Shown one piece after another: positions 3,483-26,087 of a DNA stretch of 32,000 nt; the first letter of the stretch is position 1; each line of letters begins with the position of its first letter. Position numbers and translations under genes: made by a program. The notes under the pieces were generated by a model. The model was not told the origin of the DNA. It did no database searches and saw only the letters and a program-made list of their open reading frames with translations. The DNA comes from Candidatus Omnitrophota bacterium (lineage in GTDB: Bacteria > Omnitrophota > Gorgyraeia > Duberdicusellales > 4484-171), in the NCBI GenBank assembly GCA_021735045.1, contig JAIPHU010000011.1:5466-37465 (forward strand), read 5' to 3'.

Positions 3483-3606
3483 TCAACGAATGTAGATAAT
3501 CATCAACGAATATACTAATCTGTACGAATATACCAATAGCATTCAAATATTCGTATATTTGTAATTGATTCGTACATTCGATGATTATCTTTCTACATTC
3601 GCTGAT
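3482..3606. repeat. Family A composite palindromic intergenic element, copy A1
   Basis: Terminal inverted repeats ATCAACGAATGTAGA (3482..3496) and TCTACATTCGCTGAT (3592..3606). Internally it holds tandem ACGAAT words on the left and ATTCGT words on the right. It contains the family 32-mer at 3502..3533. Confidence 0.8.
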
Positions 3607-5084: not shown

Positions 5085-5169
5085 ATCAACGAATTTACTA
5101 ATCTCTACGAATATACAAATTGTTTTATATTTATTCGTAAATTCGTAACAAATTCGTACATTCGTTGAT
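5085..5169. repeat. Family A element, copy A2
   Basis: ATCAACGAAT (5085..5094) is mirrored by ATTCGTTGAT (5160..5169). The 32-mer ATCAACGAATTTACTAATCTCTACGAATATAC lies at 5085..5116. The right arm is ATTCGTAA/ATTCGTAAC/ATTCGTAC tandem words. Confidence 0.8.
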
Positions 5170-6853: not shown

Positions 6854-7432
6854 ATGGATTTAAACAAAAATATTAAAAACTGTCCCCTGATTTTTCTAGA
6901 TTTAGAAACTACTGGTTTATTGGTAGAAAGAAGTTCTATCTGTGAGGTCGCAGCTTTTTTAATTAAACAAGGCAAGATAGTAGATGAGTTCCACAGCTTA
7001 GTTCACCCTCATCAGAAAGTTCCTTATGCTGCGTTTTGCATACATAAAATTTCAGATAAAGATTTAATCGGTGCTCCTTATTTTGAAAATATTGCCGGTA
7101 ATTTAGTTAATTTTTTATCCCAAGGTATTCTTTGTGCTTATAATGTTGCTTTTGATCTAGGATTTATAAACTACCAACTAAAAAAAAATAATAGAGAATA
7201 TATAAACCCGCCCCTTATCGATGTATTAGCTATGGCAAAAAACATATTAAAGCTTAAAAGTTATAAGCTAGAGTCAGTAGCTAGGTTTTTTGGTTTAACT
7301 TCAAAGATACAGTTTCATCGGGCCAAAGATGACGCTTATGTAACCTATTTAATTTTTTCTAAATTAATTGAAATTATAGAAAAAAAAGAGCCGATGCAAG
7401 CTAAAGAGTTCATTAACCTATATGGTCTGTAA
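6854..7432 (+). CDS. DEDDh 3'-5' exonuclease (DnaQ / Pol III epsilon-like)
   Basis: Exo I (FLDLETTGL), Exo II (AYNVAFDLGF) and Exo III (HRAKDDAY) motifs. I start it at ATG 6854 rather than the TTG at 6848. Confidence 0.85.
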   Translation: MDLNKNIKNCPLIFLDLETTGLLVERSSICEVAAFLIKQGKIVDEFHSLVHPHQKVPYAAFCIHKISDKDLIGAPYFENIAGNLVNFLSQGILCAYNVAFDLGFINYQLKKNNREYINPPLIDVLAMAKNILKLKSYKLESVARFFGLTSKIQFHRAKDDAYVTYLIFSKLIEIIEKKEPMQAKEFINLYGL

Positions 7433-7530
7433 TCAGTGAATGTACAAAGATAATCAGCGAATATATAAATAAGAATAAATAAACATTCGTATATTCGTAA
7501 AGATTAGTAAATTCGTTGATAATGATTGAT
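7432..7530. repeat. Family A element, copy A3 (32-mer in opposite orientation)
   Basis: The reverse complement of 7489..7520 is ATCAACGAATTTACTAATCTTTACGAATATAC, matching 30-31 of 32 positions in A1 and A2. The left arm is ATCAGTGAATGTACA...ATCAGCGAAT. Confidence 0.8.
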
Positions 7531-8160: not shown

Positions 8161-8162
8161 TT

Positions 8163-8238
8163 AGCTCTTAGCTCATAGCTGATGGCTGATGGATTATAAA
8201 AAGAATAGCAATGAGCCATGAGCAATGAGCCATGAGCT
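8163..8238. repeat. Family C palindrome built of tandem heptamers (GCTCAT-type left arm / ATGAGC-type right arm)
   Basis: The left arm AGCTCTTAGCTCATAGCTGATGGCTGATGG is mirrored by the right arm GCAATGAGCCATGAGCAATGAGCCATGAGCT. By my alignment about 24 of 30 positions are complementary. Both arms have 7-nt periodicity. Confidence 0.75.
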
Positions 8239-8263
8239 GGTTCGATAATCACGGATTAGGAAA

Positions 8264-14728: not shown

Positions 14729-14756
14729 GGGGTCAGGTCTCCACTCTTGACAAAAA

Positions 14757-14777
14757 CCCGCAGACGTCCTACTTTCG
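14757..14777. repeat. 21-nt direct repeat CCCGCAGACGTCCTACTTTCG, copy 1 (upstream of nitroreductase)
   Basis: Identical 21-mer at 15350..15370. This copy overlaps a candidate promoter, TTGACA (14747..14752), 17 nt, TACTTT (14770..14775). Confidence 0.8.
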
Positions 14778-14837
14778 CCAAATATAGGACATTTGTTTTT
14801 GCTTATTTAGATACATCCTACAATGAGGAGGTTAGTA

Positions 14838-15338
14838 ATGGGAAAAACTGATATATTAAAATTAATGAAAAATAGGCGTTCTATTAGAAAATTTCAAGAC
14901 AAAGAGATCTCTGTACAAGCTATAAAAGAATCATTAGAAGCAGCTCGTTGGGCGCCTTCAGGCCTCAACAATCAACCTTGGAAATTTATGATATTAGAGC
15001 AAGATAAAAAAGATTCCTTAGCTAAATATACAAAATTTGGCCAAGTGATAAAACAAGCTAATAAATTAATCATAGTTTTCCTTAATAAAGAAAAACTATA
15101 CAGTTATAAAAAAGACTTAATGGCGATTGGTGCTGCTATTCAAAATATTCTTATCTATCTTCAAAGCCAGAATGTAGGGAGTTGTTGGTTGGGTGAGATT
15201 ATAAACCAAGCAGAGCAAGTTCAGAACAAGCTGCAGGTACCGCCAGAGTTAGAATTTGTGGCGGCTATTGCAGCGGGGGTACCTCAAGAAGAAGTAAAAA
15301 TCACAGAACGTAGATCCCTGGAAGACCTAATCCTTTAA
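14838..15338 (+). CDS. Nitroreductase family protein (FMN-dependent)
   Basis: RRSIRKF, AARWAPSGLNNQPW and the AIQN...GSCW pattern. The GGAGG at 14828..14832 sits 5 nt before ATG 14838, so I prefer 14838 over 14823 as the start. Confidence 0.82.
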   Translation: MGKTDILKLMKNRRSIRKFQDKEISVQAIKESLEAARWAPSGLNNQPWKFMILEQDKKDSLAKYTKFGQVIKQANKLIIVFLNKEKLYSYKKDLMAIGAAIQNILIYLQSQNVGSCWLGEIINQAEQVQNKLQVPPELEFVAAIAAGVPQEEVKITERRSLEDLIL

Positions 15339-15349
15339 AAAACCAAATT

Positions 15350-15413
15350 CCCGCAGACGTCCTACTTTCGGTAAAAGTAGACGTCCTATATTTGCCAGAT
15401 ATAGGACGTCTGC
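15350..15413. repeat. 21-nt direct repeat copy 2 plus adjacent hairpins sharing the AGACGTCCTA word
   Basis: The 21-mer lies at 15350..15370. A small hairpin pairs CTACTTT (15362..15368) with AAAGTAG (15374..15380). A perfect 13-bp inverted repeat pairs AGACGTCCTATAT (15379..15391) with ATATAGGACGTCT (15399..15411), separated by 7 nt. Confidence 0.8.
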
Positions 15414-15460: not shown

Positions 15461-15488
15461 TTGACGCAAAAAAGAAAACTAGTAAAAT
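15461..15488 (+). promoter_or_regulatory. Candidate sigma70-type promoter of the PKS operon
   Basis: TTGACG (15461..15466), 16-nt spacer, TAAAAT (15483..15488), about 25 nt upstream of ATG 15514. Confidence 0.5.
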
Positions 15489-15498
15489 TTTACTAGTT
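15477..15498. promoter_or_regulatory. Perfect 22-bp palindrome AACTAGTAAAATTTTACTAGTT overlapping the -10 element (operator-like)
   Basis: I checked self-complementarity base by base. It spans the -10 hexamer and the predicted transcription start. Confidence 0.55.
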
Positions 15499-15513: not shown

Positions 15514-17031
15514 ATGCAAATAGCCAAATTATTAGCCCAAAAAAGCAAAAAATACCCTAAAAAAGCAGCTTTTATCTGTAAAGATCTGCCTGTATCATTT
15601 GCTCAGTTGAAAGATAAAAGTTTTAGTATTGCTAACTATCTTTTAGAGTTGGGGCCAATAAAAAGTAAAAAAGTTGCAGTCTATCTGCCTAATTTGCCCG
15701 ATACGGTTTTTAGTATCTTTGGAGTTTTGTCTGCGGGAGGGGTATTGGTTCCCCTTGACTATATGTTGACAGAAATTGAAATCATAAATTTCATCAATCA
15801 TTCTCAAGCTCAGGTTTTGATTATTCAGCCTAAAAAAGAAGTTAGCCTAGATTGGGTTAAACAACAGTGCCCGGGTTTAAAAAAAATAGTTATTTCTGGG
15901 TCAGAGTCTAAAGAATTTACTTCTATTTCAGATATCTTTACCAAGAGTTTTCTAGATTTTCCTCAAAGCTCAGTTAAAGACCAGGATGATGCTGCGATAT
16001 TTTATACTTCAGGTTCAACCGGTCACCCCAAAGGAGTGGCCTTAACCTATCAACACCTGATAAACCCTATTGAGGTTATTGATAACTATTTAACTGTTAG
16101 TTGCAAAGATGTATTTTTGTGCGGGGGGATACCTTTTTCTCATATTGGCGGTTTAGACTTTATTCTATTTATGCTTTACTTTGGCTTTACCCTTATTTTG
16201 ATGGAAAGATTCCAGCCGTTAGATTTCTTAAGAAATATTCAAAAACATAAAGTAACTTTATTTTGCGTGGTGCCGGCTATGTTTATGGCTATACTTTTTC
16301 TAAAAGGGGCAAAAAAGTTCGACTTGTCTTTTCTGAAATATGCTGTGGTTTTTGGAGCGCCTTCTTCACCGGCGGTATTAAAGAGGTTTCATAAACTTTG
16401 CCCTAATGCTCAGTTACGCAATGGTTGGGGCATGACCGAGACATCTGCACCTAACAGTTATTCGCCGGCAGATCAAAATAAACTTTCTAGCATCGGCCGT
16501 TTTGATTTTAATCTGGAAGCAAAAATTGTTGATAACCAAGGTAGTCAGGTACCTCAAGGCAACAAAGGTGAGTTGTGGGTTAGAGGCAAAGGCGTTATGA
16601 AAGGTTACTATCGGGAACCAAAGTTAACCAAGCAGGTATTGACTGAAGACAGATGGCTAAAAACCGGAGATATAGCTAAAAAAGATAAAGAAGGTTTTTT
16701 TTATATAGTTGGGAGAAAAAAAGAGATGATTAAAGTAGCTGGAGAAATTGTATTTTCTCCGGAGGTAGAAAACGTTATTCAAAAATTTCCGGGGGTAGTT
16801 GAGGTAGCCGTTGTTGGCAAAAAGGATAAACTAAGAGGAGAGGTTCCCAAAGCCTTTTTAGTAGTGGATAAATCAGATCAGTTTGATAACCAGAAGTTTA
16901 GGGATTTTTTAAAACAGCACCTAGCTCACTTTAAGATCCCTCAGAGTTTTGAATTTTGCGAAAAACTGCCTAAAAATAGAACTGGAAAGATAGATAAATT
17001 GAAGTTAACAAAAACTATAAAGATATCTTAA
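15514..17031 (+). CDS. AMP-dependent acyl-CoA/acyl-ACP ligase (adenylate-forming superfamily)
   Basis: YTSGSTGHPKGV, GWGMTET, TGD, GRKKEMIKVAGE and PKNRTGKIDK core motifs. Confidence 0.9.
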   Translation: MQIAKLLAQKSKKYPKKAAFICKDLPVSFAQLKDKSFSIANYLLELGPIKSKKVAVYLPNLPDTVFSIFGVLSAGGVLVPLDYMLTEIEIINFINHSQAQVLIIQPKKEVSLDWVKQQCPGLKKIVISGSESKEFTSISDIFTKSFLDFPQSSVKDQDDAAIFYTSGSTGHPKGVALTYQHLINPIEVIDNYLTVSCKDVFLCGGIPFSHIGGLDFILFMLYFGFTLILMERFQPLDFLRNIQKHKVTLFCVVPAMFMAILFLKGAKKFDLSFLKYAVVFGAPSSPAVLKRFHKLCPNAQLRNGWGMTETSAPNSYSPADQNKLSSIGRFDFNLEAKIVDNQGSQVPQGNKGELWVRGKGVMKGYYREPKLTKQVLTEDRWLKTGDIAKKDKEGFFYIVGRKKEMIKVAGEIVFSPEVENVIQKFPGVVEVAVVGKKDKLRGEVPKAFLVVDKSDQFDNQKFRDFLKQHLAHFKIPQSFEFCEKLPKNRTGKIDKLKLTKTIKIS

Positions 17032-19073: not shown

Positions 19074-19707
19074 AAATGAAGATTACTTATCAGCTAATTG
19101 TGCTGATATTAAAACTCCCTTTCCAAAACTAAAAGTAACTTGTACTGGGGTTTTTGGTGAGTGTTACCATGGTTATGAAGTGGGTGATGAACTAATTTTA
19201 GGAGATTTTACCCATCCTCCTAAGCATTTTTGCCTTGGGTTGGTTCATTCACTTTTTCCACCTGCCTACGCTTTAAGTTTTGGGGCTAGGTTTCCTTTTA
19301 TGGAGAATCAAAAATCGTTAAAAGTTACTTGTCCTGATGGCGGAAAAGCTGAATTTTTGGTTGAGCTGTTAGATAAAAAAGATAAAGTTCAATTTATTCC
19401 CCAAGACCCTAACCATAAAGGGCCTAATCCGAAAAAAATGGAAGTAGAAGTAGTTAAGGCAAAAGGAAAATGTGCCTATAAATATAAAGTTGGTGACAAA
19501 TGGGACATAGAAGGGCTTAAATGTATCCCCGGGTTTTGTGGAGCAGCTTGGCATACACTTTTTCCGGCGGTTTTTGCCTTAAACTTTGGAGCAAAATTTC
19601 ATTTTATGCAAGACCCTAACTCTATAGATACAGTTACTTGCCCTGATGGCGGCAACATTGTATTTAAGGTAAGAAGAAAAGAAAAAGACGCGAAAGAACG
19701 CGAATAA
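19063..19707 (+). CDS. Tandem-duplicated TIGR04076-family protein (function unknown)
   Basis: Two internal copies of the pattern C..Y.VGD.......P..FC......LFP...AL.FGA.F.FM......V.CPDGG...F.V (residues about 25-105 and 130-210). The last 7 codons (KDAKERE) lie in repeat B1. Confidence 0.6.
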   Translation: MKNKNEDYLSANCADIKTPFPKLKVTCTGVFGECYHGYEVGDELILGDFTHPPKHFCLGLVHSLFPPAYALSFGARFPFMENQKSLKVTCPDGGKAEFLVELLDKKDKVQFIPQDPNHKGPNPKKMEVEVVKAKGKCAYKYKVGDKWDIEGLKCIPGFCGAAWHTLFPAVFALNFGAKFHFMQDPNSIDTVTCPDGGNIVFKVRRKEKDAKERE

Positions 19708-19773
19708 AAAAGATGCGAAAGAGCGCGAATACAATTAGTGTTTATTAGTTAAAAATTAGCGTTTATTCGCGTT
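19684..19773. repeat. Family B intercistronic palindromic element, copy B1
   Basis: Starts with the 22-mer AAAGACGCGAAAGAACGCGAAT (19684..19705). AACGCGAATAAA (19697..19708) is perfectly complementary to TTTATTCGCGTT (19762..19773). The right arm holds tandem AATTAG(T/C)GTTTATT units. Confidence 0.85.
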
Positions 19774-19789
19774 ATAAAGGAAGGTAGAA

Positions 19790-21037
19790 ATGAAAAGAGT
19801 AGTTATAACAGGTGTTGGTGTAATATCAGCTGCAGGCGAAGAAAAGAATGAATTTTATAATAATCTAATTGAAGGTAAGCCGTGCATAGAAAAGGTAGAA
19901 AATTTTGACGTCAGTTTATTTAATTCAAAAGTCGCTTCTCAAGATCTAGATTTTGATCCTAAAAACTTTGGCATAGAAGATGCTTATCGTATGGATCGTT
20001 ATGTTCAGTTTGGCCTTGCTTCTGCAAAACAGGCGGTCAAAGATGCAAAACTAGATTTCTCAGATCTAGATTTAAGAAAATCAGGAGTTATCTTGGCAAA
20101 CGCTATTTGTGGAACCCGGTTTATGGAAGAAGAGTTTCTTCTGGTAACCGATTGGGGCAAAAATCCAATTGATCCCAGAAAGGGAAGGCCTTATCTTTAT
20201 GATGCTGCGATGTTTAATACGCCAAGTGCTGAAATTTCTGCTTTTTTTGGCACCCAGGGGATAAATACAACAATTTCTACTGGTTGTACCGCCGGTACTG
20301 ATTCTTTAGGCTTTGCTTATGAATTAATTAAAGATGGCAGGCAGGATTTAGTTATATCCGGAGCCAGTGAGGCCCCGATTACTCCGGTTACCTTCGGTGC
20401 CTTTGATGTAGTTAATGTTTTAGCTAAAGAGAATGATCAGCCTCATAGATCAAGCCGTCCCTTTGACAATAAACGTAATGGTTTTGTTATTTCTGAAGGA
20501 GCCGGAATCTTAATCATGGAAGAACTCGAGCATGCTAAAAAAAGAGGAGCTCATATCTACGCAGAAGTTAAAGGTTTTGGTACTACTTGTAATGCTTATC
20601 ATATGACTGATCTACCCCCAGATGGGCGCCCGATGGCACTTTCTATGGAACAGGCTTTGTCTGAGGCAGGTATTGATAAAAAAGAAGTAGGTTATATTAA
20701 TGCCCATGGGTCTTCGACTCGCCAAAATGACATTTTTGAAACTGATGCTTACAAAAAAGTTTTTGATAAACTTGCTTATGATATTCCGATCAGCTCAATT
20801 AAATCTATGGTTGGCCATCCTTTGGCAGCTGCAAATGCGGTTGAAAGTGTTTTGTGCTGTATGGTTTTTGAAAAAGGTTACCTTCCTCCTACAATTAATC
20901 AAGAAGAAAAAGACCCAAAGTGTGATCTAAACTATATTCCTAATAAAAAAATGAAACTAATGCCAGAATACATATTAAAGACAAGTAGTGGATTCTCAGG
21001 TATTCATTCAGCTATTGTGTTTAAAAAATGGAAATAG
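19790..21037 (+). CDS. Type II polyketide synthase ketosynthase alpha subunit
   Basis: Cys166 in TISTGCTAGTDS (codon 20285..20287). Catalytic His residues lie in NAYHMTD and INAHGSSTRQND. SIKSMVGH is present. The TRQND motif resembles what I recall for act-type KS-alpha rather than FabF (HGTSTPxGD). Confidence 0.88.
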   Translation: MKRVVITGVGVISAAGEEKNEFYNNLIEGKPCIEKVENFDVSLFNSKVASQDLDFDPKNFGIEDAYRMDRYVQFGLASAKQAVKDAKLDFSDLDLRKSGVILANAICGTRFMEEEFLLVTDWGKNPIDPRKGRPYLYDAAMFNTPSAEISAFFGTQGINTTISTGCTAGTDSLGFAYELIKDGRQDLVISGASEAPITPVTFGAFDVVNVLAKENDQPHRSSRPFDNKRNGFVISEGAGILIMEELEHAKKRGAHIYAEVKGFGTTCNAYHMTDLPPDGRPMALSMEQALSEAGIDKKEVGYINAHGSSTRQNDIFETDAYKKVFDKLAYDIPISSIKSMVGHPLAAANAVESVLCCMVFEKGYLPPTINQEEKDPKCDLNYIPNKKMKLMPEYILKTSSGFSGIHSAIVFKKWK

Positions 21038-21040
21038 ATA

Positions 21041-21126
21041 AAAGACGCGAAAGAACGCGAATATGATACAAATGAACGCGAACATAATTAGTGTTTTTTC
21101 GTTAAAAATTAGCGTTTATTCGCGTT
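21041..21126. repeat. Family B element, copy B2
   Basis: The identical 22-mer lies at 21041..21062. The right arm AATTAGTGTTTTTTCGTTAAAAATTAGCGTTTATTCGCGTT lies at 21086..21126. Confidence 0.85.
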
Positions 21127-21146
21127 ATAAATAAGGAGTTTTATAA

Positions 21147-22385
21147 ATGAAAGAGAAAGTTGCCATAACAGGTTTAGGGGTTGTTTCTCCTTGTGGCCTA
21201 AAGAAAGAAACTTTTTGGGCTAATTTAAAAAAAGAAGAATCATTTATAGAAGAAATCAAAAGGTTTGATTCAAAAAATTATCCTTCACATATTGCTGGTC
21301 AGGTGAGTCAACTTGATTATTATACCCATCTTTCTAAAAGGTTAACAAAAAAAATTGATATTTTTTCCCATATGGCACTTGTCTCTTCAGAAGAGGCGAT
21401 AGTAGATTCAAAAATGAACCTAGATGATATCGACAAAGAAAGAGTTGGAGTATTTATGGGCAATGCCTTAGGCGGATGGTTGTTTGCTGAAACTGAATTA
21501 AGGGATATGTATATTGAAGGCAGAGACGGTATCTCTCCTTATATGGCATCAGCTTGGTTTCCGGCTGCACCTCAAGGCCAGATTACAATTTACTATGGAT
21601 TTAAAGGATATAGTAAAACCACAGTTTCTGATAAGGCATCATCTGCTTTGGCTTTATGGTATGGGGCAAAAACAATTAAAGAAAAAAAGAATGACTATGT
21701 ATTAGCCGGAGGAATGGAGGCACCGATTACCCCCTATGCCTTGTTATCTGCTAATTGCCGGGGTGATTTGTCAAAAAATAATAGCCGTCCCCAAGAAGCT
21801 TATAAGCCTTATGATTTGTATCGAGACGGGCTGGTATTAGCAGAAGGTTCGGGTACAGTTGTCTTAGAAAGTCAAAATCAAGCAAGAAAAAGAAAAGCTC
21901 CGATTTATGGTTATATAGAAGGTATCGGTTTTTCTTCGGATGGGTATCATTATGCAAGGTACCGGCCTACCCCAGAAAATCTAGAGTATGCTATAAAAGA
22001 ATGCTTAAAAGATGCTGGTTGGCAAAAAGAGGATGTTGATTATATCTGCTTAGATGCAGAGTCTACTGAAATGGGAGATTACCTTGAAACCCAAGCTTTA
22101 AAGAATGTATTTGGAGAAAAAATTAAAAACATAGCTTTAAGTGCGCCTAAAAGCATGTATGGAAATCTATTGGGAGCTCAAACCGCATTAGACTTAATTA
22201 CTACTTTATTTTCGATGCAAAACTGTATTGTGCTTCCTACTATAAACTATTCGATGCAAGACCCATACTGTGACCTAGACTATACACCTAATAAGTCAGT
22301 GGAAAAAGAGATAGATAAGGCACTGATTATTTCCAGAGGCAGGGGAGGAATAAATATAGTATTAGCAATAGAAAAAGCGGAGTGA
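21147..22385 (+). CDS. Type II PKS ketosynthase beta subunit / chain-length-factor-like, lacking the catalytic Cys
   Basis: Paralogous to the upstream KS (MEAPITP, LVLAEGSG, PKSMYGN). The Cys position aligns with K163 in TVSDKASS (codon 21633..21635). The second His is replaced (ICLDAESTE versus INAHGSST). Confidence 0.85.
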   Translation: MKEKVAITGLGVVSPCGLKKETFWANLKKEESFIEEIKRFDSKNYPSHIAGQVSQLDYYTHLSKRLTKKIDIFSHMALVSSEEAIVDSKMNLDDIDKERVGVFMGNALGGWLFAETELRDMYIEGRDGISPYMASAWFPAAPQGQITIYYGFKGYSKTTVSDKASSALALWYGAKTIKEKKNDYVLAGGMEAPITPYALLSANCRGDLSKNNSRPQEAYKPYDLYRDGLVLAEGSGTVVLESQNQARKRKAPIYGYIEGIGFSSDGYHYARYRPTPENLEYAIKECLKDAGWQKEDVDYICLDAESTEMGDYLETQALKNVFGEKIKNIALSAPKSMYGNLLGAQTALDLITTLFSMQNCIVLPTINYSMQDPYCDLDYTPNKSVEKEIDKALIISRGRGGINIVLAIEKAE

Positions 22386-22480
22386 GCAAAGCGAACGGAG
22401 TTCTGAGCGATCAAGCGGTGAGCGCAGTCCTGAGCTTGTCGAAGGACGAAGTCGAACCACGCAGGGAGTCGAAGGAGATA
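22383..22480. repeat. GC-rich non-palindromic word-repeat island between KS-beta and ACP
   Basis: About 56% G+C by hand count over 22381..22480, within AT-rich surroundings. TGAGC occurs at 22383, 22404, 22419 and 22431. GTCGAA occurs at 22438, 22451 and 22468 (GTCGAAGGA twice). Confidence 0.6.
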
Positions 22481-22504
22481 AAAAATAAATTATAAGGAGG
22501 CAAA

Positions 22505-22744
22505 ATGGATTTAAAAGAAGAAGTAATAAAAGTAATTGCAGAAACCCTAGAAGTAGGCAAAGAAGAAGTTGTTGATGGAAAGAATTTATATGAATCAATT
22601 GGTGTTGATTCAACAGAAATGGTAGAAGTTTGTGTGGCTTTAGGAAAACATTTCGACACAAAAATCCAAGCCAGTGAAGTTAACAAAGATTCAACTCCCG
22701 AGGATATAGTAAGAATAGTTAAACAAAAAAAAGAAAATAATTGA
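22505..22744 (+). CDS. Acyl carrier protein
   Basis: 79 aa, acidic, with the phosphopantetheine serine motif GVDSTEMVE. AAGGAGG RBS. Confidence 0.88.
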   Translation: MDLKEEVIKVIAETLEVGKEEVVDGKNLYESIGVDSTEMVEVCVALGKHFDTKIQASEVNKDSTPEDIVRIVKQKKENN

Positions 22745-22749
22745 TAACT

Positions 22750-23556
22750 ATGAATTTAATAGATTTAAGTTTACCAATCGACGATCAAGCCTTCGAGGTT
22801 CATCCTTTAAGGATAGAACGCACTTCACATAAAGAAGGTATAGCAAAGATAAATAAGGTAATAATGTCTCGAACTCCTGAAGGCAAAAAAAATTATCAAG
22901 CTGGTGAAAGGATAATAAAAAAAGAACAATTGCCAGGAGGAGAATTTTTGTCACTGGAGATGGTTTATTCGTCAGTCCATAGCGGAACTCATATGGATTA
23001 TTCTTTTCATTATGGCAGCAGCTCCGAAGGCAGGCCTTCTAAAACTGCTGATGAAATTCCTTTAGAGTTATGTTACAAAGACGGGGTAAAATTAGACTTA
23101 ACTCATAAGAAAAAAGAAGAAGTAATTAGCGCCGAGGATATAAAGAAAGGTTTAGAAAAAATAAATTACACTTTAAAGCCCTTAGACATAGTTTTGCTTT
23201 ATACCGGATCTGACAAACTATTTGGCAAACCGGAATATTTTTCTGATTATCCAGGCCTGGATATATCAGCAATAGATTATCTACTTGATTGCGGTATAAA
23301 AGTATTTGGAGTTGATACTATGGGAATTGATAGGCCCTATAAATTTATGATCAAAGATTTTTTAGAAAAAGGGGATCCTAAATTTTTGTGGCCGGCTCAT
23401 TTTCATGGAAGAACCAGAGAATTTATTCATATTGAAAGGCTTGCTAATTTAGAAAATTTACCTGATTATGGATTTAAACTTATTTGTTTTCCAGTTAGAA
23501 TCAGAAAAACTGGTGCTGCTTGGTCAAGGGCCGTTGGAGTAATTGGTGACAAGTAA
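22750..23556 (+). CDS. Cyclase family protein (PF04199 / kynurenine-formamidase-like fold)
   Basis: HSGTHMDYSFH metal-binding motif and a later GVDTMGID segment. I start it at ATG 22750. The TTG at 22741 overlaps the ACP stop. Confidence 0.78.
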   Translation: MNLIDLSLPIDDQAFEVHPLRIERTSHKEGIAKINKVIMSRTPEGKKNYQAGERIIKKEQLPGGEFLSLEMVYSSVHSGTHMDYSFHYGSSSEGRPSKTADEIPLELCYKDGVKLDLTHKKKEEVISAEDIKKGLEKINYTLKPLDIVLLYTGSDKLFGKPEYFSDYPGLDISAIDYLLDCGIKVFGVDTMGIDRPYKFMIKDFLEKGDPKFLWPAHFHGRTREFIHIERLANLENLPDYGFKLICFPVRIRKTGAAWSRAVGVIGDK

Positions 23557-23582
23557 TTAATTAAACAAAAAGGAGGTTTACT

Positions 23583-24014
23583 ATGGCACATACTGTAAAT
23601 TCAATTGTAATTGATGCACCTTACGATAAGGTTTTTGAAATCAGTAATGATATTTCTCGTTGGAAGGATTTGTTTGACGAATATACCGAATCTGAAGTTT
23701 TAGAAAAAGAAGCAAATAAGATTATTTTTCAGCTTACTCATCAAAATGGCAATAGTTGGAAGTCATACCGGCTTTTGTTTAAAGAAAATAAATTTGCTTA
23801 TGCAGAAAAGCTAGATCCAAAGTTTCCTTTTGAATATATGAAGATAATCTGGCTTTACCGCCAACTTCCAAACGGGGTTGAGATGACATGGATTCAAGAT
23901 TTTACTATGGATAAAAATGCTAAGTTTGATGATCCAAAAGCTGAAGAGATTATAAATCAACACTCGCAGAAGAACTTAAAGAATTTTAAACAACAAATAG
24001 AAAATGAAAAATAA
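23583..24014 (+). CDS. SRPBCC-fold polyketide aromatase/cyclase (TcmN/WhiE-VI-like)
   Basis: 143 aa. I.APYDKVFEISNDISRWKDLF ... W.SYRLLF ... PFEYMKIIW ... GVEMTWIQDFTMD matches the ARO/CYC pattern as I recall it. AAGGAGG RBS. Confidence 0.72.
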   Translation: MAHTVNSIVIDAPYDKVFEISNDISRWKDLFDEYTESEVLEKEANKIIFQLTHQNGNSWKSYRLLFKENKFAYAEKLDPKFPFEYMKIIWLYRQLPNGVEMTWIQDFTMDKNAKFDDPKAEEIINQHSQKNLKNFKQQIENEK

Positions 24015-24017
24015 AAA

Positions 24018-25169
24018 ATGTTAAAAACACACAGACGCACTTTTTTCTTTTTAGCTAGCTTGGCTTTTATCCTTTCTTTTAGTGTACAAGCTACAGCAGC
24101 GCTTCTGCCTACTTTAGCAGAATATTTCAATCAAAGTCCGGTTGCAACAGGTAAGTTAATTTGGATTTATATGCTTCCCTACGGACTATGTGCTTTAATT
24201 TGGAGTCCGTTAAGCAGGCAGTTTTCGAATAAAAGGATTCTGCTTTCTTGTCTGGCGCTTTTTTCTCTGTCTGCTTTGGCAGTGACTTTTTCTTTTAATC
24301 TATTAGCTGCTTTTTTAGGCCGGTTGGGTATGGGTATATTTGGCTCGGCACTGGTACCTTTAAGTTTAATTACGATTGGTAAAGAGTGTAATAGTAAAGA
24401 GCGTCCTAAACATGTTGGTTTATTTTTTTCAGTTGGTTTTAGTTCAGGGCTCATAGGAGTTTTTTTAAGTGGGATTTTACCTTGGAGGTTTATCTACGGA
24501 ATTCCTGCCTGTCTAGGGATAGTAGCTTTATTTTTTGGCATAAGGTATCTAGATAGCTATGATTATCGGGGTAAGTTTAAAATTAGCTACCTGGCTACGT
24601 TTAAAGACAAAAGTGCCTTAAAACTATTTTCTTTTATCTTTGTTTTAAGTTTTTTCTACCATAGTATTCATCAATGGTTAGGGGTCTACTTAGCTCAAGA
24701 ATATTCTTTTAGTCAATTTTTAGTAAGTTTAACTTTAACTATTTCAGCAATAGCTGCAATTTTTTCTGAAAGTATTGGCGGTTTTTTATCAGCTCGGTTT
24801 GGTTCCTCTAATATTGCTTCATTAGGGCTTTTGAGTATGGTTTTATTTTTATTTTTTACTTTAATTGTCGGATTGCCTCAGGCAATATTTTTTCTTATTA
24901 TTTTTTGGGGTATGGGTTGGGCTTTTAACCATGTCGGTTTATCGTCATATTTAACTGGGCTTCCCGATAAATATTTGCGTGATGCATCCAGTCTAAATAG
25001 CTCTTTAAGGTTTATCTCTGGAGGCTTAGGGACTTATTTTGGCGGAAAGATTATCTCTAAGATAGGGTTTTCGATCCATTTTATAACTGTAGGAGTTTTA
25101 CTTTTGGTAGTAGCAGTTTTAATTAAAAAAACTTTAATAGTTAATAACGCGAATGAACGCGAATTATAG
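24018..25169 (+). CDS. MFS transporter
   Basis: About 12 hydrophobic segments. A GRLGMGIFG-type loop motif follows TM2-3. The last codons (NANEREL) lie in repeat B3. Confidence 0.8.
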   Translation: MLKTHRRTFFFLASLAFILSFSVQATAALLPTLAEYFNQSPVATGKLIWIYMLPYGLCALIWSPLSRQFSNKRILLSCLALFSLSALAVTFSFNLLAAFLGRLGMGIFGSALVPLSLITIGKECNSKERPKHVGLFFSVGFSSGLIGVFLSGILPWRFIYGIPACLGIVALFFGIRYLDSYDYRGKFKISYLATFKDKSALKLFSFIFVLSFFYHSIHQWLGVYLAQEYSFSQFLVSLTLTISAIAAIFSESIGGFLSARFGSSNIASLGLLSMVLFLFFTLIVGLPQAIFFLIIFWGMGWAFNHVGLSSYLTGLPDKYLRDASSLNSSLRFISGGLGTYFGGKIISKIGFSIHFITVGVLLLVVAVLIKKTLIVNNANEREL

Positions 25170-25231
25170 ACGCGAATGAACGCTAATATTATTAGCGTTT
25201 ATTTGTTATAAATTAGTGTTTTTTCGCGTTT
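25146..25231. repeat. Family B element, copy B3 (variant)
   Basis: AACGCGAATGAACGCGAAT...GACGCGAATGAACGCTAAT | ATTAGCGTTTATTTG...AATTAGTGTTTTTTCGCGTT. The central palindrome is AACGCTAATATTATTAGCGTT. Confidence 0.8.
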
Positions 25232-25247
25232 AAAAGAGGAGGTTAAG

Positions 25248-26030
25248 ATGGGTAATTTAGAAGATAAAGTTGCAATTGTAACTGGTGCTACAGGAGGTAT
25301 TGGTAAAGATATAGTTAAAGGACTAGTTGATAAAAAAATAAAACTTATATTGGCTGGGCGCAATCAAGAAAAATTAAAATCCTTAGAAGAAGAATTTTCG
25401 AAAATTTCTGAAATTATTACAGTTAGCTGTGATGTTACCAAAAGAAAGGATTTAGAAAATTTAATTAATAAAGCCAAAGAAAAATTTGGCAAGATTGATT
25501 TTTTAATTAATGGGGCTGGAGTATCAAGCCAGCATCCTTTTTGGAATCAGCCTATAGAAGATATAGAAAAAATTATCTGGACCAACTATTATAGTTATGT
25601 AATGTTATCAAGAATGGTTGTGCCAATTATGAAAGAAAATAATTTTGGCCATATTGTAAATATTACATCTGGATCTGTGATGGTAGATCCGCCGCCAAGA
25701 AATTTTATTGTTTACACTTCTTTAAAGGTGGCATTACGCAGCTTTGCTAAGGGTCTTTTTTGGGAGATGCGTGATTTTGGGATAAAGGTTACATCCATTT
25801 TTCCTGGGGTAACCCGGACTCCTTTAACCGGTAAGTTAAAGAATATAGCTGAAAATAGGCTTATAGAACCAAAAGCAGTAGCTGATACAGTAGTGTTTGC
25901 CTTGGCTCAGCCATTAAATGTTTGCCCCATTGAACTTGCTGTAATAAATCAACAAACACCTTGGACAAAACCGGTTATTCCGTTTAAACAAGATCACCCG
26001 AAAGACGCGAAAGAACGCGAATGTAATTAG
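25248..26030 (+). CDS. Short-chain dehydrogenase/reductase (probable polyketide ketoreductase)
   Basis: TGATGGIG cofactor motif, NGAG, and the catalytic YTSLK (YxxxK). The C-terminal PKDAKERECN is encoded by repeat B4. Confidence 0.85.
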   Translation: MGNLEDKVAIVTGATGGIGKDIVKGLVDKKIKLILAGRNQEKLKSLEEEFSKISEIITVSCDVTKRKDLENLINKAKEKFGKIDFLINGAGVSSQHPFWNQPIEDIEKIIWTNYYSYVMLSRMVVPIMKENNFGHIVNITSGSVMVDPPPRNFIVYTSLKVALRSFAKGLFWEMRDFGIKVTSIFPGVTRTPLTGKLKNIAENRLIEPKAVADTVVFALAQPLNVCPIELAVINQQTPWTKPVIPFKQDHPKDAKERECN

Positions 26031-26087
26031 TGTTTTTTCGTTAAAAATTAGCGTTTATTTGTTATAAATTAGCGTTTATTCGCGTTT
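26001..26087. repeat. Family B element, copy B4
   Basis: The identical 22-mer lies at 26001..26022. AACGCGAAT (26014..26022) is complementary to ATTCGCGTT (26078..26086). There are three right-arm AATTAG(T/C)GTTT units. Confidence 0.85.

Follow-up and report, generated by a model that had tools for sequence, protein, structure and literature searches.

Intercistronic palindromic elements of an Omnitrophota type II polyketide synthase-like operon are probably decayed relatives of a GxxExxY gene cassette

The DNA under study is a 32-kb window of a Candidatus Omnitrophota genome (contig JAIPHU010000011.1), and it holds four short palindromic elements, all of them between adjacent cistrons of a single type II polyketide synthase (PKS)-like operon (Table 1). 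Comparison with orthologous operons leads us to consider it likely that the four are derivatives, without an open reading frame (ORF) and resembling miniature inverted-repeat transposable elements (MITEs), of a palindromic cassette that bears a GxxExxY gene and spreads in a homing-like manner, and that the C-terminal tails and fixed reading-frame phase they impose on upstream genes are by-products. An earlier interpretation made from the letters of the window (the sequence-only reading) had favored mRNA-level stem-loops and named MITE-like insertions that captured gene 3′ ends as a secondary option. That secondary option has turned out to be the best supported, by empty sites with native gene ends, an ORF-bearing parent at the same junction and a deletion intermediate.

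The four elements

The four copies are real and far above chance. The word AACGCGAA occurs 10 times in the window, always within the elements, against an expectation of 0.31, and the 22-mer AAAGACGCGAAAGAACGCGAAT, for which the expectation is 0, is exact at 19684, 21041 and 26001, as the sequence-only reading had stated, with degenerate copies at 19709, 25143 and 25166. All four elements were found where that reading had placed them. Every copy has palindromic ends, with forward units of 21–25 nt followed by their complements; there are two of each in copies 1–3 and one forward and three reverse in copy 4. The forward units of copy 1 lie at 19684–19705 and 19709–19730 and its reverse units at about 19733–19773. 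Exact 26–36-mers are common to paralogous copies, and copies 2 and 4 share an exact 36-mer. Two of the earlier measurements need adjustment: perfect complementary runs exist, as had been reported for outer stems of 9–12 bp, but the longest measure 8–12 nt, and the elements end 4–8 nt upstream of the Shine–Dalgarno (SD) core and 16–20 nt upstream of the ATG, not 10–20 nt before the ribosome-binding site.

Table 1. Coordinates of the four elements and of associated signals in the 32-kb window
Feature	Position	Strand	Remarks
Copy 1	19684..19773	+	TIGR04076 gene/KS-alpha junction; 2 forward + 2 reverse units
Copy 2	21041..21126	+	KS-alpha/KS-beta junction; 2 + 2 units
Copy 3	25143..25231	+	MFS/SDR junction; forward units 25143–25164 and 25166–25187, then two reverse units
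Copy 4	26001..26087	+	SDR/radical SAM junction; one forward unit (26001–26022), three reverse units
SD (AAGGAAGG) and ATG of KS-alpha	19778..19792	+	Directly 3′ of copy 1; unpaired in the predicted fold
Likely operon promoter, TTGACG-16-TAAAAT	15461..15497	+	Overlaps the perfect 20-bp palindrome ACTAGTAAAATTTTACTAGT

A GxxExxY gene between arms of the same type

The probable origin of the elements is most directly visible at the SDR/radical SAM junction, where copy 4 lies in the window. In locus L127 this junction carries a 134-aa ORF (16170–16574) between arms of the same type as the window elements (B-type), and the ORF scores 136.2 bits against the TIGR04256 hidden Markov model, whose curated cut-off is 35. 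Its ATG is that of the last left-arm word (CGCGA-ATG-G) and its TAG that of the first right-arm word (AAT-TAG-CG). Loci L164–L167 have an 87%-identical GxxExxY gene at the same junction, again with B-type arms. The hairpin of L122 at this site has no ORF, retains ATGGAA and about 56 nt of the ORF 3′ end (...IDIRRRIYEKAANKN-stop), and is, to judge from these vestiges, an internal-deletion intermediate. In copy 4 of the window the arms alone are left, and the window encodes no GxxExxY family member.

The same build recurs in independent cassettes between cistrons that have ACACGAAT arms (L169) or CGCTAAT arms (L168), and in Omnitrophota three independent cassettes, each with its own word variant, have an ORF that starts within the arm words. 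Among 120 Omnitrophota GxxExxY homologs, many begin with MTANK, MNANK or MDTNN and end with ...RISVNSRE or ...IRVNSR, and these termini are arm words read in frame. Of the 14 PDDEXK_3-like ORF hits in the loci of the cross-phylum scan (below), 13 lie within 74 nt of the motif. Most hairpins with loops of 370–630 nt hold a GxxExxY/PDDEXK_3 ORF, and the NANERE frame of the arm often runs into it. We also note that the CGCTAAT-armed gene lies within a diversity-generating retroelement locus (L168, 344–2485), with an Lcl_C-domain gene on one side and bAvd and reverse transcriptase genes on the other.

A structural model of the GxxExxY protein (predicted local distance difference test score 91.6) has a PD-(D/E)XK fold in which the PD...ExK residues are invariant. 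The fold search returned only generic PD-(D/E)XK matches, the closest solved fold being that of Cas4 (TM 0.55), and a sequence search of the PDB with the protein gave no match. The parent ORF is thus a TIGR04256 PD-(D/E)XK protein whose fold is nearest to Cas4/RecB-like nucleases, and no known transposase. The PDDEXK_3 family (TIGR04256/PF13366, GxxExxY) has been described as one of unknown function with multiple horizontal transfers and a patchy distribution (PMC3424549). Neither Rfam nor the searchable literature yielded a description of this class of element or of the link between GxxExxY genes and word-array hairpins.

Turnover at orthologous junctions

The cassette occupies the SDR/radical SAM site in L127 and L164–L167, is absent from it in L130, L129, L121 and L123, and has decayed there in L122 and in the window. 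The sister lineages of L127 and L164 (L130; L121/L123) are among those with an empty site, and there the SDR has its native end, HPDK-stop. The L127 and L164 ORFs are 90.9% identical and agree at 84% of third codon positions, whereas the third positions of the flanking genes agree at 61% (SDR), 54% (radical SAM) and 57% (MFS). This lower divergence of the cassette ORF suggests that the GxxExxY gene is younger than its flanks and has recently spread horizontally into the same site.

Other junctions vary as well. The KS-alpha/KS-beta junction is 19 nt long and empty in L121–L123 and is filled in the window and L127. Among strains that are 98.8–100% identical in KS-alpha, the element between the MFS and SDR genes has 1+1, 2+2 or 3+2 units; copy 3 of the window is orthologous to those of L121 and L123, which have 2+2 and 3+2. 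Loci L121 and L122 have identical KS-alpha proteins and are 94–99% identical outside the hairpin-bearing spacers, which fall to 70% (SDR/radical SAM) and 62% (radical SAM/amidohydrolase). At the former, L121 has a hairpin of GGATTAAGG words (16047–16146) and L122 the B-type remnant (16018–16154); these hairpins are unrelated, and the flanks are 96–98% identical right up to the boundary. L121 and L122 differ essentially in their hairpin cassettes alone. Copies are gained and lost, and their unit numbers shift, between strains that are 99–100% identical in the flanking genes.

The MFS/SDR copy of L122 looks as if it had been converted to the copy-1 type, and this, together with the exact 26–36-mers noted above, points to local copying or gene conversion, which would account for the operon-specific appearance of the elements. 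A simple parsimony scheme of gain and loss was tried and dropped, because the gene-by-gene identities conflict (for example, in the AMP-ligase gene); the conflict itself indicates recombination. A more distant Omnitrophota locus, L132 (5348–20798), has an orthologous operon with a hairpin at almost every junction, built of other word families (CACAGAT, GGTTACGAA, CAGCTGA, TATCACG and others). One of these hairpins is nested (6872–7100), and nearby junctions repeat one family.

Protein tails and reading-frame phase

The ORFs upstream of three copies end inside the elements, the TIGR04076 protein with ...KDAKERE, the MFS protein with ...NANEREL and the SDR with ...PKDAKERECN. KS-alpha stops before copy 2, which begins 3 nt past its stop codon (21035–21037), and beyond that stop the same frame reads IKDAKERE. 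The translations bear out the sequence-only reading in all of this. The TAA that ends the ORF in copy 1 (19705–19707) is the word's own GAA-TAA, the MFS gene ends within the left arm of copy 3 at 25169, and the SDR gene ends in copy 4 at 26030.

Comparison of orthologous gene ends shows that tails of the KDAKERE type come from the element. In relatives that lack it the genes abut or overlap and have native ends: in L129 and L130 the TIGR04076 gene extends 13 nt past the KS-alpha start, and the MFS gene overlaps the SDR start in L127 and L129. The native tails, SKSVEWEGKNG (MFS), DIQKEGEQCAE (TIGR04076) and HPDK (SDR), are unlike those supplied by the element. Since the genes abut or overlap, the downstream SD lies in or at the end of the upstream gene (in L130, which has no element there, the same KS-alpha SD is within the TIGR04076 coding end), and an insertion that spares the SD therefore removes the last codons of that gene.

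The idea that the element confers a functional, shared, charged C-terminal tag (KDAKERE/NANERE) on the operon's proteins, raised by the sequence-only reading as its less likely option, had in its favor that three unrelated proteins end in similar charged peptides in the same phase. It is effectively refuted: about three quarters of 120 clusters of SDR orthologs end in HP-x-K and, among the clusters listed, a DAKERE tail occurs in one; the element-free MFS and TIGR04076 orthologs have unrelated native tails; KS-alpha stops ahead of its copy; and xRE-stop tails are found in many phyla on any ORF that enters such an array. Some SDR orthologs (P0253, P0263 and P0338) have extended tails such as EEVESRER, KEAESRVE and REVESRE, and these may be derived from other word hairpins at the same junction.

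The constancy of phase, to which a chance probability of 1 in 27 had been attached, is a tautology, as it is the repeat word's own stop codon that ends the ORFs. With G/A-A after it, the word GAACGCGAAT contains one stop codon per word, so that any ORF ending in the array has the phase GAA-CGC-GAA-T(A/G)A by definition, and with a 10-nt period all three frames reach a stop within three canonical words. In the cross-phylum arrays the stop lies within the arm for 223 of 372 frames, usually as xRE-stop, and likewise for 28 of 40 genuine long upstream ORFs. Since KS-alpha has already stopped, the phase of copy 2 has no bearing, and the 1-in-27 figure loses its force. The stop position is canonical in the relatives, with GAA-TAA or GAA-TGA; in window copies 3 and 4 it is taken by TTA or TGT, and their ORFs are one or two codons longer. 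The fixed phase is thus due to a built-in stop codon that is mutated in copies 3 and 4 and intact in relatives. Selection for the shortest tail was considered as the cause of the phase and discarded, since copies 3 and 4 use a frame other than the shortest.

Occurrence of the words across phyla

A scan with an 18-nt degenerate left-arm pattern, with one genome per species, matched at least 120 loci in more than 20 phyla, including Verrucomicrobiota, Planctomycetota, Acidobacteriota, Chloroflexota, Gammaproteobacteria, Spirochaetota, Bacteroidota, Elusimicrobiota, Saccharimonadales and Methanothrix, among others. They contain arrays of the ~10-nt CGCGAAT word that are usually followed by their complement, and the family consensus is AACCGCGAAT-GNACGCGAAT-GAACGCGAAT ... 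ATTCGCGTTC-ATTCGCGTCC-ATTCGCGGTT, with a period of 10 nt. In the 132 matches listed, the ten unsearched bases upstream of the pattern read CCGCGAATGA and are 50–93% conserved per position (mostly 71–93%), and the upstream word outside the search pattern is CCGCGAAT; conservation of bases that were not part of the search argues that the matches are not due to chance. For 50 of these 132 matches there is, within 400 nt, an inverted partner that fits at 20 or more of 28 bases. The arms of 40 hairpins covary, with 104 double-sided changes compared with 36.6 ± 5 in shuffles and far fewer in slid controls, a difference somewhat inflated by the choice of partner arms by complementarity.

The description of the elements as operon-specific therefore holds for the window and the loci of close relatives, but not for the sequence type, which is found in more than 20 phyla. 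Another Omnitrophota metagenome-assembled genome (L111) has a B-type array between two GspE-like ATPase genes. A metagenome scan with an AT-rich 19-mer gave 30 loci, mostly from high-GC soil organisms, and no further contigs of the source genome.

Proposed origin and alternatives

The history that we favor would run as follows. The arms of the cassette are arrays of ~10-nt words (xxxCGCGAAT) with their complement downstream, here in an AT-rich, 21–25-nt double-word form, and the loop of the autonomous form holds a small GxxExxY PD-(D/E)XK nuclease gene that takes its ATG and stop codon from the innermost words. As the relatives show, such a cassette occupies the SDR/radical SAM junction, has spread between lineages into that site, presumably through the action of the nuclease, and decays by internal deletion to the bare hairpin that is copy 4. 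Arm sequence would then have been copied, or transferred by gene conversion, to three other junctions of the operon, and the relatives show that unit numbers grow and shrink like those of tandem repeats. A truncated upstream ORF continues into the left arm as far as the built-in T(A/G)A and so acquires a (K/N)ERE-type tail whose phase is fixed. In the polycistronic mRNA, folding of the elements is predicted to give imperfect hairpins of 25–35 bp that hold the stop codon and the next SD together at one stem base. This geometry probably makes the insertions tolerable between formerly coupled genes, and it may affect mRNA stability or processing by RNase III.

Several observations weigh against this history. 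The GxxExxY family is without a known function (PMC3424549), and a cutting or moving activity is presumed from the modeled fold; the junctions of copies 1–3 never have the ORF-bearing form in the loci compared; and the indication that the gene is younger than its flanks comes from one lineage pair. Filled and empty junctions, when compared, show no consistent target-site duplication, the flanks being A/T-rich and ambiguous. B words occur in the Omnitrophota loci of this clade only inside the PKS operon, a distribution that a freely transposing MITE would seldom show and that agrees better with local copying or gene conversion. In addition, the strand bias described next could reflect selection on the RNA and not mere tolerance.

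That bias bears on the idea that the elements are host-selected mRNA hairpins which set the stoichiometry of the PKS operon's cistrons, as 3′ stabilizers, RNase III sites or translational couplers, and that their likeness to mobile DNA is secondary. A single predicted transcript carries all four copies and shows no terminator signature, and their sense-strand RNAs form strong stems (−24.7 to −37.2 kcal/mol; z-scores −2.3 to −6.0) that leave the downstream SD unpaired and have the stop codon in or beside the stem; in Escherichia coli, REP elements at such a distance from a stop codon influence translation and the fate of the mRNA. In all 12 copies of this family (family B; G+T 0.51) the sense strand folds better, with G-U pairs numbering 46 of 324 in sense and 8 of 287 in antisense. 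This bias is the best hint of constraint at the RNA level, and it is weakened by the shared ancestry of the copies, which are not independent and may have inherited it once, and by fold z-scores against composition-preserving shuffles that are alike on both strands; 25 hairpins of other words in the same operons show no strand bias. Selection by the host also sits poorly with orthologous operons that work without hairpins (L129 and L130 are compact, with overlapping genes), with differences in presence, unit number and word family among strains whose flanks are 95–100% identical, with unrelated hairpins that can take the same site, and with the same words in unrelated contexts, around a nuclease gene, in more than 20 phyla. 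We therefore regard host selection as a minority explanation, perhaps a serious one but unlikely to be the principal cause, and a regulatory RNA role as possible and secondary to the MITE-like origin. None of the copies coincides with a promoter-like or terminator-like site, and the stems precede ATAAAGG or TAAAAGAGG; terminator and internal-promoter functions were rejected on these grounds, and an operator function of the elements on sequence and context. An Rfam scan of the window gave 0 matches at the gathering score and one chance-level miRNA hit (E = 0.84).

Palindromic build, extragenic position and variable copy number would also suit classical repetitive extragenic palindromes (REPs) and their mosaic arrays (bacterial interspersed mosaic elements, BIMEs), or transposase-driven MITEs moved in trans by a RAYT or insertion-sequence transposase, with the GxxExxY genes as passengers in the loops; that these proteins have no known nuclease activity, and that hairpins of other word families occupy the same sites with no visible ORF, could be read in the same sense. 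Against this, the GxxExxY association is tight in several phyla, the ORF starts within the arm words in each of the three Omnitrophota cassettes, and the ORF is inherited or transferred together with its arms. There is moreover no GTAG-type REP head, no consistent target-site duplication and no RAYT or transposase gene among the scanned genes of the PKS operon and the adjacent window, and we consider this origin quite improbable. Integron attC sites were also considered and rejected: the ends are ...GAACGCG/CGCGTT(A/T)TAAA and not the RYYYAAC/GTTRRRY core sites, those of the window's ORFs that were compared with Pfam include no integrase, and L129 keeps the gene order without hairpins.

A broader proposal, which we offer as speculation that may well be wrong, extends the cassette origin favored here to all prokaryotes. 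Word-array hairpins and GxxExxY genes would be operon-parasitic homing cassettes, whose arms stop ORFs in any frame and hand the ribosomes to the nuclease gene; the nuclease would recognize the arms or the empty junction and drive spread into the same site, and ORF-less hairpins would be MITEs that seed neighboring junctions. With a ~10-nt period (10 = 1 mod 3) and word boundaries that contain ATG and T(A/G)A, stops would arise in any frame, and the nuclease gene would often start inside the arm, which would give MNANERE... or MTANK... N-termini.

Operon setting and other repeats of the window

The window has a G+C content of 34%, and its KS-alpha homologs place it in Candidatus Omnitrophota. 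From about 15.5 kb it is occupied by the co-directional operon, with genes for an AMP-ligase, a phosphorylase-family protein, DUF2621, ApbA, tandem TIGR04076, KS-alpha, KS-beta, an acyl carrier protein (ACP), two cyclases, MFS, SDR, B12-radical SAM, an amidohydrolase and further proteins; the identities given earlier for the tandem TIGR04076, KS-alpha/KS-beta, ACP, cyclase, MFS, SDR and B12-radical SAM genes were confirmed. All four copies are downstream of the likely promoter, of which the element proper is at 15461–15488. Ahead of the AMP-ligase gene, L121, L127 and L130 have kept both the promoter and its palindrome, and this site is a candidate operator for the operon.

Other intergenic regions of the window and of its relatives carry hairpins of other words. 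A second family in the window consists of ACGAAT(A/G)TAC words with their complements and is present three times in a span of 4 kb (3483–3606, 5085–5169 and 7433–7526); its xCGAAT core is akin to family B and to the ACACGAAT arms of the L169 GxxExxY cassette. A different family, of AGCTCATAGCTGATGG words and their complement (CCATGAGC...), is found at 8161–8245 between genes for an AsnC-type regulator and an aminotransferase. Hairpins of the GCAGACGTCCTA type lie at 14751–14800 and 15344–15413, on both sides of a nitroreductase gene (14823–15338); none is present in any relative examined, and the gene itself is variable, L127 having a mere remnant at that place. Finally, the KS-beta/ACP junction contains a GC-rich, non-palindromic insert of ~100 nt (22386–22480; ...CTGAGCTTGTCGAAGGACGAAGTCGAA...) with a fold z-score of +1.0 and no match among the compared loci; relatives lack it, and their two genes either overlap (L121) or have 32 nt between them (L127).

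Implications

These results connect the large GxxExxY/PDDEXK_3 protein family with a defined genetic element and with an activity that can be tested. They also show the spacers between Omnitrophota cistrons to be fast-evolving, with hairpins gained, lost and swapped between strains whose genes are nearly identical. Widespread intergenic hairpins lead to artifactual C-terminal tails and spurious ORFs in annotation, and "ERE" tails and N-terminal "MNANERE" extensions should not be taken as protein features; word hairpins may also break metagenome assemblies. If the broader homing proposal is true, it explains spurious peptides of the "xRMNANERE" and "IRVHSRPFA" types in many phyla and gives the GxxExxY family a function.

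Comparison with known systems

Like the Correia/NEMIS MITEs of Neisseria, the elements are short, palindromic, non-autonomous and strain-polymorphic, lie at gene ends and between cistrons, and form long hairpins in mRNA; Correia elements are reported to be RNase III substrates. The arms here differ from theirs in being tandem arrays of ~10-nt words and not unique terminal inverted repeats, there is no clear target-site duplication, the ORF-bearing relative encodes a PD-(D/E)XK GxxExxY protein and not a transposase, and the words occur in more than 20 phyla. With the REPs and BIMEs of enterobacteria, which affect mRNA stability and translation, they share an intercistronic position in operons near stop codons. 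REPs are species-specific, whereas the words here cross phyla, are arranged as tandem CGCGAAT words without a GTAG head and have an ORF-bearing parent and a deletion intermediate; no RAYT-like gene is among the scanned ORFs of the PKS operon and adjacent window. Rickettsia palindromic elements likewise are palindromic repeats within coding sequence that contribute peptide segments; they are in frame and read through, whereas here the ORF is truncated and gains only a short tail and a stop codon.

The related cassettes have a loop ORF that clearly belongs to TIGR04256/PF13366, a family of which the window itself encodes no member. Homing endonuclease genes and the ORF-bearing intervening sequences of 23S rRNA occupy introns, inteins or rRNA helices and not intercistronic junctions; TIGR04256 has no demonstrated homing activity, and nothing in known homing systems corresponds to the word-array arms. 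The cassettes nonetheless resemble both in having a small nuclease-fold ORF nested in a hairpin-forming insertion, patchy occupancy of the same site, an ORF younger than its flanks, and ORF-less remnants.

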